In this document: positions 1-31,169 of the stretch, piece after piece | Position numbering within the stretch: the first letter of the stretch is position 1 | Layout of the letters: the number at the start of each line of letters is the position of its first letter | Notes under the pieces: generated by a model | What the model was told of the DNA's origin: nothing | Databases searched by the model: none | The model's input: the letters and a program-made list of their open reading frames with translations, nothing else | Virus record (IMG/VR): IMGVR_UViG_2568526230_000009 | Length of the DNA stretch: 44,644 nucleotides | From: a virus | Lineage: Duplodnaviria > Heunggongvirae > Uroviricota > Caudoviricetes | Strand: one strand, 5' to 3' | Made by a program: the position numbers and the translations under genes

Positions 1-324
1 TTACTCCAGAGACAGCCGAACCGAAAAACCGTTTTCAGCGAGCGTCAGACTCAGTGTGTTGATAGTCCAGTCCCGGTCCTCCTCGGTCCCGAAACCTTGA
101 GTTGTGACTTTGCATTCTGCTGTCAGCGACACTAAATCGAGCGTCGCTGGCGTCGTGTACGTCATAGAGAACTCTTTTTTAGCTGCACCGCCCTTGAGCC
201 CTGGTGCAGCTTCTTTCGCTGCGTCGAGCGACGGCTCAACTGCCGGCCATTCAATGACAGGATCGCCGCCACTACCTTGTCCGCAATTCTTTGATCTGCC
301 CAGTTGCTGTGTCGTGATATTTAA
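1..324 (-). CDS. Open frame (107 codons, stop at 1-3) likely encoding the C-terminal part of tail protein D, out of frame with the upstream D ORF
   Basis: Manual translation of the minus frame gives ...DWTINTLSLTLAENGFSVRLSLE*, plausible for a gpD C-terminus; overlaps the D ORF stop region (272-324) in a different frame. Confidence 0.3.
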   Translation of the reverse strand, partial: LNITTQQLGRSKNCGQGSGGDPVIEWPAVEPSLDAAKEAAPGLKGGAAKKEFSMTYTTPATLDLVSLTAECKVTTQGFGTEEDRDWTINTLSLTLAENGFSVRLSLE

Positions 325-1045
325 TCAGATACGTCGGTTCCGGATTTTCGCCACCGCTACCACTATCGCCACTTTGTCCATTTCTCGAATAGCCCCAGCT
401 GGAGTTATCACGACGAGTTAGCGTGTAGTGCTGGAGCGGAGCACCGCTAACAGATTCGCCCGCGCCGCGCGGCAGGAATATCCAGTACCCGCCCGCGGGT
501 TTACTCACCGCATCGAATCTCGTTGCGAGCCGCGACATCAGGTGCATATCTGACTCGCCGACCTGATCGAGTTGCGTGATAACATTGTCTGCAAACCGCT
601 TTGATACGCGTGGTTTTAGCCCATTATCGCTCGCTATTGTCGCAACGATATCGCTGACAGTGACGTCGCTCCAGGAACGAGTCTTTTTGCTCTGAACTGT
701 CGGAGATCCTTTTGCTGCGTTCATCGGAGCCGCTTTTGCTGTGAAATCAACTACCCGGGGTTCACCGCCACTGCTAGCACCGTCAACGATGTATATCCCT
801 TTATCAATTATCTGATTACCGAAACCGAGCCCAATACTGATTTTTACTCCGCGGGCCGGAATTTTCAGAGTTTCAGAAACTATTGCTACGCGGAGTTCGT
901 CTGTCTGTTTACTGGAGCCGCCGTAATCTGTCAGCGTGATATTGATCAAACCTTTTCTTATTTTATCCGTGATGTTTTTATTATCAGCAGATATATAAAA
1001 ATTAGGTTTCCACGCCTCCACGCCAGTATTTACGTAATCACTCAT
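272..1045 (-). CDS. Phage tail protein D (late control gene D family), N-terminal 257 aa; probably frameshifted relative to its C-terminus
   Basis: Position at the end of the P2-type tail operon (T-U-X-D); at 257 aa it is shorter than P2 gpD (~387 aa as recalled). Confidence 0.55.
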   Translation of the reverse strand: MSDYVNTGVEAWKPNFYISADNKNITDKIRKGLINITLTDYGGSSKQTDELRVAIVSETLKIPARGVKISIGLGFGNQIIDKGIYIVDGASSGGEPRVVDFTAKAAPMNAAKGSPTVQSKKTRSWSDVTVSDIVATIASDNGLKPRVSKRFADNVITQLDQVGESDMHLMSRLATRFDAVSKPAGGYWIFLPRGAGESVSGAPLQHYTLTRRDNSSWGYSRNGQSGDSGSGGENPEPTYLIKYHDTATGQIKELRTR

Positions 1046-1048
1046 TCA

Positions 1049-1273
1049 TCAATCCCATAATTGCGTTTCTTTTTTAACCGGCTCTGGTTCGATATCTGGT
1101 AAAACAATTTTTTCTCCAGCACGAAACACGGCACACATATCCGTTACGCCGTAATTCGAAACCTGATATAAAACAGTCTCTGTCGTTTTTGACGCTCTCC
1201 CGTAGACCGCAAGGCAGATCTGATCGAGACGGTCACCGTCCCGTGTAGTGTATGTAATCATTTGGGGCCCCAT
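1049..1273 (-). CDS. Phage tail protein X
   Basis: 74 aa; GDRLDQICLAVYGRASKTTETVL and C-terminal ETQLWD resemble P2 gpX as recalled. Confidence 0.6.
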   Translation of the reverse strand: MGPQMITYTTRDGDRLDQICLAVYGRASKTTETVLYQVSNYGVTDMCAVFRAGEKIVLPDIEPEPVKKETQLWD

Positions 1274-1434
1274 TAATTAAAAGGATTTCATAATGAGAAT
1301 TAATTTTAGTAGTCGGAGAGGTATTAGTATTTCGGCGTCAAAAAAAATACCATCAGGTTGTTTTACATTTATGTTCGTAGTTTTTTTTATTATTTTTATA
1401 CTTGTTAAGTGCTCTGGTAGCGCTTGATTTTGTA

Positions 1435-1863
1435 TTAATCTAGCGAAGCTCCATAATATTCGAGCGTGAGTGAAAAGTCCTGCGATTTAGGTGTTCCGCC
1501 CATCAAAAAGCTGTTTTGCGTTTCAGTTAGTTCTCGCAGCACCCAGTACCCTTTCACCTCCCCGGTCCCCAGCACTAGCTGCTGGGGTTCTCCCGTGTTC
1601 CCGAGCGCTCGCAAATCTGTCAACAGGCCGACGCCGCACCCGTCAAGAAATAAAGCGTTTATCTTTCCATCGATAGTAATTGTGGGGTTCGGTCGTCCGG
1701 TTATCTGCAACGCGTCGTTTTTCCCGAATCGTGTTTGCTGAGCCCAGCGCCAGGCGTCACTACGTTGCAGTTTGTTGTACGCTACTGTTGATATAGCAAA
1801 AATGAAATCACCCAGGCCGAGCATGATATCCTCAGCACCGTTTATTGCATCACTCATTGTCAC
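1435..1863 (-). CDS. Phage tail protein U
   Basis: 142 aa immediately downstream of the tape measure gene in P2 order; start may be an internal Met. Confidence 0.55.
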   Translation of the reverse strand: MTMSDAINGAEDIMLGLGDFIFAISTVAYNKLQRSDAWRWAQQTRFGKNDALQITGRPNPTITIDGKINALFLDGCGVGLLTDLRALGNTGEPQQLVLGTGEVKGYWVLRELTETQNSFLMGGTPKSQDFSLTLEYYGASLD

Positions 1864-3500
1864 CCCGCCGCAGCTGGTTTATCAAACATCGCGCCACGAT
1901 TGTACGAACTCGCAGCCTGTCTCAGTCCATCGAGCACCCCCGACGCTGCAGATTGTTGTATTGACTGCGGATCTGTCGCACCGACAATATTGATTTCGAT
2001 TTTATTGTTTTGCTCCGGCGCAGGTGTCGAGACTGCCTGCTTCAACGTATCAATATTTAACGTCGACGAATCCAGTGCTGCAGGCGCGGTATTTTTATTT
2101 ACCATCCCGGATAATGGATTAACAAACGCGAGCATTGATTCTGCCTGAGATTTTGCCTGTTCTTGCCGTTCTGGATGCCGCATATTTTCGACAGCCTCTT
2201 CGGCTTTTGCCTTCGCAATATTATCAGCAGTCAATCCAGCGTTCGGTGAATATTTACCTCCCGAATCCATAAACTCTTGATATGCCCGATTATATTCGTC
2301 ATTATAAGTTTTCTGTTCTTCATCTGATTTTTCATCCGGAATAAGCCACTCCAGTTTCTTTACGACAGCCCATATAATCTTCCCGAATTTGACGCAACCT
2401 TCTCCAAAATTGACGATGCCATCCCACATTTTTTTCATATTTTCTGGTTTTACCCACTCAGTAATTGTGCTGACAAAACCACCCTGATTATCCTTAAACC
2501 AGGATGTAAATGTTTCACGTACTGAGTCAAACGTCGGCGCGAGTTCCCCCCCGATTTTACCGAGTGTATCTGCAAGTCCCGACGTAATAGAGCCCCACAG
2601 ATTTGTCACTGATACATGCGCACGCGCCGCCCCTTCCGCACCCTCTTTTGTTAACAAATTCGACTTTTGCGCGTCAGACATTGTCTGTTCCCAGCTTTTA
2701 CCCGTCGCCTTCATATACGTCATGATCTTATTAGCCTCGCCCCCCATGAGCTGGTCAGCGAGGCTCGCCGCTTGCTTCTCATCTTTCATTTCAGAGATGC
2801 GACGCATAACCTCATTAAACTGTTTTTCCCGATCCCAGCCAGCCATTCGTTTTTTCGTCAGGCCAATTTGAAATAACATGGGATTCAGGCTTTTTTCGTT
2901 TCCGATTTCGCCGATTTTATTTGTAAGTTCTTCAGACAAATCCCCGATATTTTCGCCGTTCAGGCCCGCGGCTTTACCAATATTTTCCCACGCAGCGTAT
3001 TTTTCGACGCCAACGCCGTAGGACTTCGCCAGACCGAGTTTTTCTGACGTCTCTGCATTCATTGCCAGCGCACCAGCTGCAGCACCGCCAATGAGCCCTG
3101 CCGCGCCAAGTGTCCCCCATTTGATACCCCGCCCCGTAGCCCTCACCGCACCTGCGGCGGCTCGTCCGCCCCATTTTGCAGCTCCTTTTGCGCGACCCGT
3201 CCACTTCTCCAGCCGCTGTTTTTTAGCAAGTTGAGTATTCAGCGCCTCCTGGTCCTGCGTTGTCGCTTTTATTCGACGGTCCAGCTTTTGATACTGAGCA
3301 GATAAATCAGAAACGTCTTTACCTGCCAGTTTCATTGCTGCGATTTTGTCTTTTAATTTATCCTGACTTTTCGTTAATTTCCCGACAGTAGACGACGTCT
3401 GCCGAATCGCATCATTGAGTTCTGTTGTACCGCGACGAAACGACGGGTCTATTCGCCCACCGAATACAACCTGCGTTTTAAAGTTTTGAGAAATAGCCAT
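1860..3500 (-). CDS. Tail tape measure protein
   Basis: 546 aa, Ala/Gly-rich and coiled-coil-like, between tail chaperone and gpU. Confidence 0.7.
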   Translation of the reverse strand: MAISQNFKTQVVFGGRIDPSFRRGTTELNDAIRQTSSTVGKLTKSQDKLKDKIAAMKLAGKDVSDLSAQYQKLDRRIKATTQDQEALNTQLAKKQRLEKWTGRAKGAAKWGGRAAAGAVRATGRGIKWGTLGAAGLIGGAAAGALAMNAETSEKLGLAKSYGVGVEKYAAWENIGKAAGLNGENIGDLSEELTNKIGEIGNEKSLNPMLFQIGLTKKRMAGWDREKQFNEVMRRISEMKDEKQAASLADQLMGGEANKIMTYMKATGKSWEQTMSDAQKSNLLTKEGAEGAARAHVSVTNLWGSITSGLADTLGKIGGELAPTFDSVRETFTSWFKDNQGGFVSTITEWVKPENMKKMWDGIVNFGEGCVKFGKIIWAVVKKLEWLIPDEKSDEEQKTYNDEYNRAYQEFMDSGGKYSPNAGLTADNIAKAKAEEAVENMRHPERQEQAKSQAESMLAFVNPLSGMVNKNTAPAALDSSTLNIDTLKQAVSTPAPEQNNKIEINIVGATDPQSIQQSAASGVLDGLRQAASSYNRGAMFDKPAAAG

Positions 3501-3608
3501 CGATTTTCATGACCTCGTTTACATAGAAATTAAAAACCCGGTACGGCAGGTCCATTTGCGTATCGGGCGGGATGGCAAGTTTTTTCGCAATAAACGGAAT
3601 CAGAATAA

Positions 3609-3890
3609 CTATATCTGATGTCGGTCTTTCGGAGGCTTTACCAGTTCGTTAAATGCGGCCTCCATTTGATCGTAATCGCACGCAGGCAGTGCATATAAAT
3701 CCTCACGCTCCAGATTTGCCAGGCGCGCCAGCATTGTCGCTGTCCGCTCTTCAAGACCACTTTTATCGTTACTGAACATAATGCGGTCGCGTAATTTTGG
3801 TTCGCGAATAGTAATTGTATCGCGGCTCTCCCCCTTAATAATAAACGGGCGAGAGAGCGTAATAGTCATACTGTCTAATAATGATTCCAT
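3609..3890 (-). CDS. Tail assembly chaperone (gpE-like)
   Basis: 93 aa between tail tube and tape measure genes; a 108 bp gap follows before the tape measure start. Confidence 0.5.
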   Translation of the reverse strand: MESLLDSMTITLSRPFIIKGESRDTITIREPKLRDRIMFSNDKSGLEERTATMLARLANLEREDLYALPACDYDQMEAAFNELVKPPKDRHQI

Positions 3891-6321: not shown

Positions 6322-7505
6322 TACGCAATCCTAATAGCTAAAAAACAGGCAGTCCCAATATCACCGACTCCACCGGGTGAATACGCCATGGCTCGCCATG
6401 AGCCAATAAGTGGTGTGTCATAAAATGGTTTTGTGGCAATATCCGTGTTATATGAACCGGTATTATTTATACTAGCGTAATATAAATCCCCTCCAGCCCA
6501 TATGGAGCCCGGGAGTATTTGTGGTGCATGATTAATAGCGACAAGCGCATAAGTACCAACCGCGCCAACAACACCTATTTCCGGTGATGGGTCCGGTGAA
6601 AGACTTATATCTATGTTGCCATTTTCATCCGGCGACTCCCCGTTAATCGTTTTAACCGGTTTAAGATTAGCCTCATTCCAGTATTTATACGTCTGCCCGC
6701 CGCACAGTAACACCAGGCCATCATAGTGAACTCCGCGTAATCTATAAAAAACCTTCTGATTGTTTTCTCCACGGGTCGAAAAATCTAAATAATCGCCCGA
6801 CACATCTGATAAACCAGCAAATGAAAACAACGTCAAATCAGTGCCCGGTTTGTTTATATTTATTTGTTTTTTAGAGGATAAAACGTCTTCAAAAATCACA
6901 TCATCTTTAAAAGTATTTGGATGAGTAAATGCATTACCCTTATCTCTATATGCAACGTCCCCATCTATACCAATATTTTTCCGCGCAGCCTGCTGAGCAG
7001 TTTCACCATTTGCGGGAATTTCAGATAAGTTTTTACTTATCTGCAAATATTTTTTGTCAGCTTCCTCGGGAGTTACGTAGTTGTCATATACTACAACATT
7101 AACCGTAGATGTGCTGGACACCGCGAGTGTGTATTTATACGTGATTGAAATCAGCGCACCGTTGCTGTCCGTAGGTTTTAAAATGTCCGGCGAGCGCGCC
7201 ACAGAGTACAGCTCGCCTTTATCTGTTAATATCCCCACCTCACGGATAGTATAGCCCCCAGTGTCTGGCGGTACGTAAAGTGTAAAGATAACCTGGTTAC
7301 CGCTATTTTCTGCGGATTTAATATCCCCACGATACGTCTCGTGAATTAATGCAGTTCGTGCCGGGTCCGGTGTTACGTCGTCGTTTCCGTTTGCGTCGCC
7401 AATAACGAATTTATTCAGCACCACGGGTACACCCGATGCCAGCGCAGCGGCTTCAAGTTGTGCGCCACGGTCTGTCAGTACTGCGTAAATTTTATTTTCA
7501 GCCAT
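6321..7505 (-). CDS. Tail fiber protein
   Basis: 394 aa; tail-collar-like N-terminus followed by variable C-terminus; position after baseplate gene I. Confidence 0.6.
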   Translation of the reverse strand: MAENKIYAVLTDRGAQLEAAALASGVPVVLNKFVIGDANGNDDVTPDPARTALIHETYRGDIKSAENSGNQVIFTLYVPPDTGGYTIREVGILTDKGELYSVARSPDILKPTDSNGALISITYKYTLAVSSTSTVNVVVYDNYVTPEEADKKYLQISKNLSEIPANGETAQQAARKNIGIDGDVAYRDKGNAFTHPNTFKDDVIFEDVLSSKKQININKPGTDLTLFSFAGLSDVSGDYLDFSTRGENNQKVFYRLRGVHYDGLVLLCGGQTYKYWNEANLKPVKTINGESPDENGNIDISLSPDPSPEIGVVGAVGTYALVAINHAPQILPGSIWAGGDLYYASINNTGSYNTDIATKPFYDTPLIGSWRAMAYSPGGVGDIGTACFLAIRIA

Positions 7506-8124: not shown

Positions 8125-8126
8125 GG

Positions 8127-9047
8127 CTACCCCATTTGCACGCTGAGTTTGATTTCTGTGCAGTACGGAGCCTGCCCGACGCCAGCGATCACATCCTCTG
8201 TTGGCGATATCAGAATCACACGTTCAGTGCCGTCACGATGTATCGCGTCGTAAATTCCTGACAGAGCTGCCGTCGCTCCGATTTTATGTTGCGTATCCAC
8301 ATATATCGCCAAATCGCTCTGAGCACCGTTAAGCAAAACGTTCTGGTCGGGTCCGAGCCCGGCTACGATAACGGCCTCAACCCGGTAATTCAGGTTCGAC
8401 GCAGGTTTTACAGTCACGAAATCAGTCAGCGGTCGAGTATCGTCAGGAGACAGGGCCGCATTCACTGTATTCAGTAGTGATTGAGGCGGAGTGCCGTCGC
8501 CGGTTCGCGACAAGACATACATATCGACGTATCCAGGCTGGGTCACCGGCGGGCCGTACGCCTGAGCTGACAGAACGTCGGGATCACTCGACAGCGCGAA
8601 ATAGTTATAGGCGTTCGTACTGCCGGCAGTATTCCGCGCATACCATGATAGCTGTATTCGGTGTCGATACTCGTCGTCACTCTCGTAAACAGCCTCAGTC
8701 GGGGGAATTACATCGGGATTAGCTGGCGTTATCAACAGCCGCAGGCAGTCAAAATTAGCGCCAATCTGGTCGAGGTCACTCCCCTTTGCAAACGCGAGCA
8801 ATACAGCGAGCATCCCCTGATTTACCCGAGCTGTAATAATGATTTCTCTGTATGCAACTATTTCCAGCAGTTTAACGGCCGGGTCTGACTCCAGGAGTGC
8901 GTTAAATTGTGGATATAATATCTGCAGCTCTGACAGTAGATTAGATTTAACATCTGAAAATAACGGGGTTTTAACGAATGCTGGCGGCGGCAGCAGACTC
9001 ATATCAATAGTTTTCACTATCGAATTCTGAACTGTTGATGTTATCAA
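8127..9047 (-). CDS. Baseplate assembly protein J
   Basis: 306 aa; order V-W-J-I-H. Confidence 0.65.
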   Translation of the reverse strand: MITSTVQNSIVKTIDMSLLPPPAFVKTPLFSDVKSNLLSELQILYPQFNALLESDPAVKLLEIVAYREIIITARVNQGMLAVLLAFAKGSDLDQIGANFDCLRLLITPANPDVIPPTEAVYESDDEYRHRIQLSWYARNTAGSTNAYNYFALSSDPDVLSAQAYGPPVTQPGYVDMYVLSRTGDGTPPQSLLNTVNAALSPDDTRPLTDFVTVKPASNLNYRVEAVIVAGLGPDQNVLLNGAQSDLAIYVDTQHKIGATAALSGIYDAIHRDGTERVILISPTEDVIAGVGQAPYCTEIKLSVQMG

Positions 9048-30245: not shown

Positions 30246-31169
30246 ATGAGATTAAAATACTCAGTACTCTTACTCGCCATTGCCCTTACAGGCTGTGATA
30301 ACAAAAAAGATGAGATCGGTTGTTCTTCGGAAATAACCCAGTCAGCTCTCATGGATTTATTAAAAAAATCTGCTTATGAAGGACTCTCTGAACAGGTCGA
30401 TAAATACCCTGATGTCACTAATCAGACCAAACGAAGCACACTGGACAAGATCAAACTAGCCATCTCTGAGATCTCCACAACATCAAGTGACACGGGCAGC
30501 ACAATGAAAACTTGTGAAGGGACCGTGACGATGACTCTATCTGCGAACGAGTACGTCCAGCTTTCAGATGCTTACAGAAAGAATTTTAATCGTAATCTCG
30601 ATAAGCAAATGGAAAGCCTGTTTTTGGAGAACAACGCAAACGCCTTTTCAAAACGTATCACCTACACCGTGCAGGCGACCGACGATCAGAAAAACGTTTT
30701 TGTAAAAACCTCTACTGATAATCCGATATCAGTGGGCGCCGCTTTACTGACATCGCTTTCCATTATCACCCCGATCGTTGAGCAGCAGAAAATCCAGCAG
30801 GCTAAGGATGCCCAACAGAGTCAAATTGAAGCGGAACAACAGGTGCAACTCAGGGCGCAAGAACAGGCTAAGTATGAGGCGGAGAAGCAAATAGAGAGAC
30901 AGGCACAACTTCAGCCGCAAAAAGCTGACAACCTTGATCAGTCCCGAATGGCATTTGCGAATGCCGACTCTGATTTGAGTACCGTCTGGAGCAAGTTAAC
31001 CCCGGCGAAGAAAAAAGATTTGCTGCCTTCTCAGCGTCAGTGGATCAAAACTAAGGATGCTATGTGCGGTAAAGTTTCAATGCAGGGAACAGATGCTGAA
31101 GTCAAGAAAATGGTCGACTGCCAGACGCAAATGACCCTTTCAAGAATCGCTTTCCTCAGAAACCAATAA
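30246..31169 (+). CDS. Lipoprotein with Gln-rich coiled coil and LprI/DUF1311-like C-terminal domain
   Basis: Lipobox LTGC; C-terminus PSQRQWIKTKDAMCGK...VDCQTQMTLSRIAFL. Confidence 0.6.
   Translation: MRLKYSVLLLAIALTGCDNKKDEIGCSSEITQSALMDLLKKSAYEGLSEQVDKYPDVTNQTKRSTLDKIKLAISEISTTSSDTGSTMKTCEGTVTMTLSANEYVQLSDAYRKNFNRNLDKQMESLFLENNANAFSKRITYTVQATDDQKNVFVKTSTDNPISVGAALLTSLSIITPIVEQQKIQQAKDAQQSQIEAEQQVQLRAQEQAKYEAEKQIERQAQLQPQKADNLDQSRMAFANADSDLSTVWSKLTPAKKKDLLPSQRQWIKTKDAMCGKVSMQGTDAEVKKMVDCQTQMTLSRIAFLRNQ

Follow-up and report, generated by a model that had tools for sequence, protein, structure and literature searches.

A one-base insertion splits tail gene D of a temperate myovirus prophage in a clonal lineage of Escherichia coli

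We analysed a window of 44,644 nucleotides of viral DNA (the whole stretch, to which all positions below refer) and found that its tail gene D is one gpD gene split by a single-base indel, and hence a frameshift pseudogene rather than a functional member of its family. The explanation that we propose, and that we hold as a whole to be very probably correct, is that the hub gene was broken by one inserted A, that the broken allele is clonal, and that the prophage is tail-defective. More specifically, a single A inserted at 277-278 creates the codons ACA AGG TAG and ends translation at codon 258, such that the product is a 257-aa protein without its last 91 residues and the remaining codons are left in the +1 frame. 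The mutation would have a single origin, in the very recent ancestry of a clonal lineage to which named O25b:H4-ST131 strains belong, and would have been inherited vertically since. The truncated protein would be unable to complete the hub fold, so that no baseplate or tail would be made and the otherwise intact prophage would yield no infectious particles, although it may still be able to excise and replicate, form heads and lyse its host.

The element is a temperate myovirus prophage of the E. coli chromosome that joins lambda-type head genes to P2-type tail genes. By megablast, the first 1,300 bases of the window matched 467 of 5,426 complete E. coli genomes (441 at an identity of at least 99%). 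The window corresponds to 2044692-2089335 in NZ_CP023844.1, where the prophage (~42 kb) lies between yecA and the leuZ-cysT-glyW tRNA genes, with pgsA and uvrC following. Its modules comprise an integrase gene adjoining tRNA-Leu, a replication/immunity region, the antiterminator Q gene with the lysis genes, lambda-type packaging and head genes (large terminase, gpW, portal, S49 protease, decoration protein, major capsid protein and FI), and a P2-type contractile tail module (V, W, J, I, fibre, sheath, tube, chaperone, tape measure, U, X and D). Both the PGAP annotation of the identical locus and the ORFs of the window place D in a contractile-tail operon (sheath, tube, chaperone, tape measure, U, X, D), of which it is the last gene, its original stop codon being window 1-3. 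The tail genes upstream of it span 1049-3500 on the minus strand in the P2-type order T-U-X-D. They were annotated by PGAP in the identical region of NZ_CP023844.1 as gene X (1049-1261, minus strand), gene U (1435-1857, minus strand) and a putative tape-measure gene (1860-3500, minus strand), the last of which PGAP calls a 'hypothetical protein' and whose role is assigned from position only.

Between this tape-measure gene (1860-3500) and the tail assembly chaperone gene (3609-3890), an unannotated gap of 108 nt (3501-3608) could pass for a lesion. In P2-like phages, the gap between chaperone and tape-measure genes is the place where E+E' is made by programmed -1 frameshifting. As regards the naming of the prophage, neither the insertion sites of EC958 Phi1-Phi7 nor the clade of Ecol_244, a strain with a closely related prophage, were found in the literature examined, and the prophage is given here without a Phi number or an ST131 clade. 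A paper on phage mEpimmI that mentions Ecol_244 concerns a different, siphovirus prophage.

Gene D is spread over two reading frames of the minus strand. The initial annotation had the D ORF ending at 272 after 257 aa and a second minus frame open from 324 to a stop at 1-3, and both sets of coordinates proved exact. The D ORF (272-1045, minus strand) runs from an ATG at 1045 to a TAG at 274-272 and encodes hub residues 1-256, one wrong residue (R257) and the premature stop (272-274, minus strand), which falls two codons past the insertion (ACA AGG TAG). The +1 frame of the same strand holds 107 stop-free codons, from 324 to the TAA at 3-1, and the third minus frame is closed at this locus; by simple stop-codon frequency, the chance of a 107-codon open stretch in a wrong frame is ~0.006, i.e., (61/64)^107. 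The stranded 3' part of the gene (1-276, minus strand, +1 frame) encodes residues 257-347 (91 aa, GSGGDPV...SVRLSLE) followed by the original TAA (3-1), and in homologues as distant as 28% identity the C-termini line up with it column for column. The two frames had been said to overlap in a Gly/Ser-rich stretch. This did not hold, as the overlap (324-272) reads YLIKYHDTATGQIKELRTR in the D frame and is not Gly/Ser-rich; a Gly/Ser-rich stretch, GQSGDSGSGGENPEP (aa 222-236), lies just upstream of the overlap, and a GSGG motif directly follows the frameshift point. No start codon occurs in the first 53 codons of the open +1 frame. Since its first start codon is the ATG at 165-163, 37 codons past the break, residues 257-293 cannot be made from any ORF. 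This ATG opens a leftover ORF of 54 aa (1-165, minus strand).

Alignment with homologues upheld the proposal that D is split by an indel and located it as a single inserted A at 277-278. The closest comparison is with ON470604.1, a PHASTER-predicted prophage from an Illumina assembly that carries an intact D of 1,044 nt: one gap is the sole difference in 1,045 columns, where GGACAGG in that record stands against GGACAAGG in the window. The identical one-base gap in D was observed against Ecol_244 and against strain SK0832. The frameshift site (277-278, minus strand; gene positions 768-769) has AA (ACAAGG) in the window versus a single A (ACAGG) in intact alleles, and the frame accordingly reads CGG ACA AGG TAG (R255 T256 R257 stop) versus CGG ACA GGT AGT (R T G S). 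When the extra A is taken out, a 347-aa protein is restored, in which ...KELRT runs directly into GSGGDPV.... The in-frame ancestral allele thus differs from that of the window by an indel of one base, which is not a multiple of three, as is typical of a frameshift pseudogene.

It is very improbable that the break is either leaky, with ribosomes that pause at the rare AGG shifting +1 and giving rare infectious particles, or useful, with the 257-aa fragment retained in the pandemic lineage for blocking tail assembly of related incoming phages. For the first of these, a +1 shift at ACA-AGG-UAG would have to yield some full-length hub, leaving the prophage leaky rather than dead. The layout lends itself to this idea, in that the C-terminal part lies in the +1 frame, the rare AGG codon is followed directly by UAG, and a ribosome that passed over the extra A behind ACA would read the exact wild-type sequence; analogies are offered by the +1 frameshift of prfB at CUU-UGA and by frameshifting at hungry AGG codons. 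However, the intact in-frame allele is ancestral and the two-frame layout is found in no diverged homologue, and codon inspection indicates poor re-pairing in +1 for either P-site tRNA, that for Thr on ACA or that for Arg on AGG. Inspection revealed neither a slippery codon at the frameshift site nor a Shine-Dalgarno-like stimulator upstream of it, and no unusual RNA structure was detected near the site (fold z = -0.40). The site therefore lacks what marks a programmed frameshift, namely, a conserved two-frame layout and a slippery codon with a stimulatory element. The prfB shift likewise has a +1 C-terminal frame and an in-frame stop that closes the shift window, but it is a look-alike only, its conserved layout, slippery codon and Shine-Dalgarno stimulator having no counterpart here. 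Low-level +1 slippage at the rare AGG and the stop may occur, judging from the codons, but recoding that keeps the prophage leaky is highly improbable.

We assessed the distribution of the frameshifted allele by comparing an 81-base probe centred on the frameshift site (window 239-319) with the 5,426 complete E. coli genomes. The probe matched at 100% identity in 364 genomes, which carry the frameshift allele and include named O25b:H4-ST131 strains. In the band of 95-99% identity (one difference) there were 69 genomes, and the nine of these shown each have a match of 80 bases, one base shorter, and a D annotated as full length. At 90-95% identity there were 2 genomes, and the one shown, YZMc3-1, carries an intact D (1,044 nt) elsewhere on the chromosome. 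The frameshift allele was also present in three Illumina/SPAdes-derived prophage records, and it is therefore reproducible in independent assemblies.

Comparison of the tail module with that of the window (up to 7.7 kb per genome) separated the two alleles further. Among genomes with a frameshifted D, 2017_APHA (ST131) and DFS.1 showed 0 differences over 7.7 kb, and 4/1-1 showed 1 difference over the 5.3 kb compared. Among those with an intact D, SK0832 differed from the window by the indel and by SNPs at 3654 and 6821, and Ecol_244 differed by the same indel and SNPs and by one private intergenic indel; A42, GF131 and YZMc3-1 were 95%, 92% and 89% identical to the window, respectively. Because these relatives at 89-95% identity are all intact, the in-frame D is ancestral. 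In the sequences compared, the insertion is linked to two other derived SNPs (3654 and 6821), which fits a single origin. The nearest intact-D prophage, that of Ecol_244, occupies the same yecA/leuZ site and is 99.97% identical over the whole window (0.02-0.03% difference across 44.6 kb, plus one insertion element), and on the strength of this identity we judge the D lesion to be recent and clonal. As to the SNPs themselves, that at 6821 changes the tail-fibre protein (WP_000829621.1 versus WP_001531771.1) at a position where A42, a more distant relative, carries the 'intact-lineage' base; that at 3654 lies in the chaperone gene and leaves the protein accession unchanged.

These counts also bear on whether the truncation has been selected, as a form of domestication in which the broken hub benefits the host by blocking infectious release or by acting as a dominant-negative against superinfecting related phages. 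The allele is found in 364 complete genomes of a very successful lineage, in which the rest of the prophage is nearly untouched, as selection would allow; nevertheless, hitch-hiking in a young clone accounts equally well for its frequency. Moreover, frameshift genomes differ at only 0-1 positions in 5.3-7.7 kb, which makes them too young for a signal of selection, and the extra insertions, of IS1 in gene X and of ISEc53 in the early region, resemble neutral decay, leaving selected truncation a very doubtful account. A sequencing or assembly artefact, by which the extra A would be absent from the real DNA, has next to no probability: the difference is a single base and the related record ON470604.1 lacks it, but the site is AA versus A with no long homopolymer, the 364 complete genomes with the identical allele come from many laboratories, three Illumina HiSeq/SPAdes prophage records have it as well, and the extra A is linked to the two SNPs (3654 and 6821) that separate the window from its nearest intact copies. 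The homopolymer read error raised in the initial annotation is excluded by the short AA and by the recurrence of the allele in these genomes and records.

That both frames belong to one gene is apparent from their family membership. The PHROG 52 profile ('tail protein'), which represents the gpD/late control D hub family, matched the 257-aa ORF significantly (E=1.9e-74, profile positions 186-417), as well as the downstream frame alone (E=5.6e-14, positions 423-512, i.e., directly after the match of the upstream ORF), and the repaired protein matched it in one stretch (E=2.7e-94, positions 186-512). With both fragments and the restored protein as queries, the Pfam and NCBIfam matches stayed below their cut-offs, PF05954 (Phage_GPD) at 22-24 bits versus 30.1 and VgrG_rel at 19 bits versus 275; the precomputed Pfam column of the protein database lists PF05954 for nearly all homologues. 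Because the Pfam and NCBIfam scores are sub-threshold, we based the family assignment on PHROG 52, a sequence match among solved structures and the predicted fold.

Among 5.8 billion proteins searched, we found 102 homologues, 26-97% identical, from Escherichia, Salmonella, Enterobacter, Cronobacter, Citrobacter, Serratia, Pantoea, Vibrio and metagenomes. Each complete homologue is a single ORF of ~323-442 aa that covers most or all of the query; apart from these there are only the 257-aa allele itself and four entries of 209-328 aa, of which three bear the label partial. The sole 257-aa entry is a cluster (P0009) of 135 member sequences that is 100% identical to the window ORF, for which the RefSeq entry is WP_001296153.1. 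In a 15-sequence alignment (to 28% identity), the two fragments abut at ...GQIKELRT and GSGGDPVIEW..., and every homologue reads through this point. The single uninterrupted ORF of ~320-440 aa that characterizes the family is thus broken by the stop at codon 258 in the window and is present in the sibling alleles. With a PHROG 52 match collinear with that of the upstream ORF and with homologues that read through, the downstream frame is the gpD C-terminus, as had been suggested. A natural two-gene layout, in which 272 is the true end of D and a gene of its own occupies the downstream frame, can be dismissed almost entirely: gene callers do annotate the 54-aa ORF (1-165), and PHROG 7984 matches it end to end, but homologues from 97% to 26% identity span the junction as a single ORF (all full-length ones do so), both parts match adjacent positions of one profile, and, without a start in the first 53 downstream codons, 37 conserved residues would go unencoded.

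A sequence search of solved structures gave only one match, R2 pyocin chain 6u5h_C (E=2e-22, residues 13-222). We also used an AlphaFold2 model of a full-length homologue (P0001, 97% identical), computed from a 70-sequence alignment, with a mean pLDDT of 86 and a pTM of 0.80. In a Foldseek search of the PDB, the top matches of this predicted structure were all hubs or spike bases of contractile systems (350-385 aligned columns, E 2.5e-20 to 1e-12). They included those of the Photorhabdus PVC, the R2 pyocin hub 6u5h_A, the Anabaena, Algoriphagus and Streptomyces CIS, and phage P1, and further matches were MuSo2 3CDD, Mu gp44 (1WRU, 9KI1), T6SS VgrG and T4 gp27. The model of P0001 thus has a predicted hub fold of the gp27/gp44 type across the whole chain, and this fold, together with the 6u5h_C sequence match, identifies the gene D product as the baseplate hub of the contractile tail.

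The 91 lost residues are modelled with block-mean pLDDT values of 82-95 as one long and one short helix and five strands (among them a strand at 260-270, a helix at 273-289, and strands at 292-299, 312-316, 325-336 and 339-346), and they carry the invariant or near-invariant family positions A276, E310, G317, W326 and G339. Because these 91 conserved, confidently modelled C-terminal residues are missing, the 257-aa product would be expected not to fold or assemble into the trimeric hub, and the prophage should be tail-defective.

Among known systems, a close parallel is P2 gpD, which in a cryo-EM structure makes up the central hub as a trimer, with the gpV spike on one side and the gpU tube initiator on the other (bioRxiv 10.64898/2026.09.14.750843). 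The P2 gene (late control gene D protein) is likewise the last of its tail operon, after T, U and X, whereas the phage described here has lambda-type head and packaging genes and, in the window, a frameshifted D. Enterobacterial proteins that bear the P2-type name 'late control protein D' are ~40-43% identical to the intact protein in alignments that take in 97-100% of the length; compared with these homologues of ~390 aa, the intact protein has 347 aa and is without their N-terminal extension and lysine-rich C-terminal tail. The R2 pyocin hub (PDB 6U5H) is among the top full-length matches of the predicted fold (E=6e-20, TM 0.66/0.72), but R2 pyocin is a headless bacteriocin, whereas the present element has a full set of head, packaging, lysis, replication and integration genes. 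Similarly, Mu gp44 (1WRU/9KI1), T4 gp27 (1K28) and several VgrG proteins match the predicted fold (E ~1e-12 to 1e-16) at a sequence identity of only 10-13%. VgrG moreover has a fused spike domain, whereas the spike here is a separate gene of the gpV type; the intact allele goes under the PGAP name 'contractile injection system protein, VgrG/Pvc8 family'.

The initial annotation had further read the D break as a second lesion in an essential virion gene and hence as a sign of a decaying prophage. In this, the D lesion stands, and an ISEc53 insertion within the window adds to it, but the further virion-gene lesion could not be found: when the entire window was set against 4/1-1 and against Ecol_244, whose D is intact, no other broken virion gene came to light. 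Relative to Ecol_244, the head and tail genes are identical except for the missense SNP in the fibre gene (6821), the SNP in the chaperone region (3654) and the D indel. A small ORF upstream of the large terminase gene, annotated as 306 nt versus 567 nt, reflects a choice of start codon on identical DNA and is not a lesion. Given that no other virion lesion was found, that identity to the intact-D sibling is 99.97%, and that at least 80% of the 23.3-kb virion module survives in 442 genomes, decay of the prophage is at a very early stage. Frameshift pseudogenes of defective E. coli prophages likewise combine a one-base indel and a premature stop in an essential morphogenesis gene with fixation in a lineage and intact copies elsewhere; what differs here is the very early stage, the D indel being the sole coding lesion relative to a sibling of 99.97% identity.

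The element (ISL3 family, called ISEc53 by PGAP) occupies 23267-25151 (1,885 bp), has an 8-bp target duplication and imperfect terminal inverted repeats, and carries a transposase gene (23295-24515, minus strand, 406 aa) and a DUF1706 passenger gene (24534-25052, 172 aa). It lies in the early region of the prophage, upstream of antiterminator Q, and might be polar on late-gene expression. The insertion is absent from 4/1-1 and Ecol_244, and its junction is common to the 10 genomes listed, including Ecol_AZ162 and MNCRE44, with 11 genomes covering the probe. In TUM2367 (NZ_CP135697.1), a genome with the frameshift allele, an IS1 is also present in tail gene X, just upstream of D, and strain 23556 (NZ_CM190132.1) shows a like two-piece match with an IS1 annotation; the IS1 in gene X is sporadic further decay of the tail module. 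At window position 29621, one C that is present in Ecol_244 is missing in the window and in 4/1-1. The site falls inside ~1.2 kb (window about 29058-30246) without an annotated gene in either genome, a region that might be either a further pseudogene of greater age or just non-coding DNA.

The frameshift in D, now fixed across a large clonal group of E. coli genomes, is a genuine feature of a known kind, an ordinary dead phage gene that implies no new biology, and its practical value lies in prophage annotation and as a lineage marker. PGAP treats the 257-aa ORF as an ordinary CDS, under the name of 'hypothetical protein' in some genomes and of 'phage late control D family tail protein' in others, without ever flagging a pseudogene. 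The broken D is also contained in the 'complete phage genomes' that were deposited in GenBank from PHASTER predictions (~20-27 kb, with host yecA included). The prophage is scored 'intact' by PHASTER-type predictions, yet its hub gene is broken in most carriers, and claims on inducible or therapeutic phages from carrier strains should reckon with this. The one-base insertion also serves as a simple clonal marker that sets 364 complete genomes apart from close relatives with an intact copy. For database hygiene, the leftover 54-aa ORF (1-165) is of concern in its own right: some phage records give it as a separate 'hypothetical protein / Gene D protein' (CDS URC09426.1 in ON470596.1), and it matches the 54-position family PHROG 7984 end to end (E=7.8e-41), such that this family of unknown function appears to be a mere by-product of annotating the broken D allele.

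Elsewhere in the tail module, we noted that the type I-E CRISPR of E. coli CNREC_004-43 (NZ_CM195844.1) holds a 32-nt spacer that matches window 8126-8157 exactly. This protospacer lies at the 3' end of the baseplate J gene and is preceded by ATG, which we take to be an interference-proficient I-E PAM.
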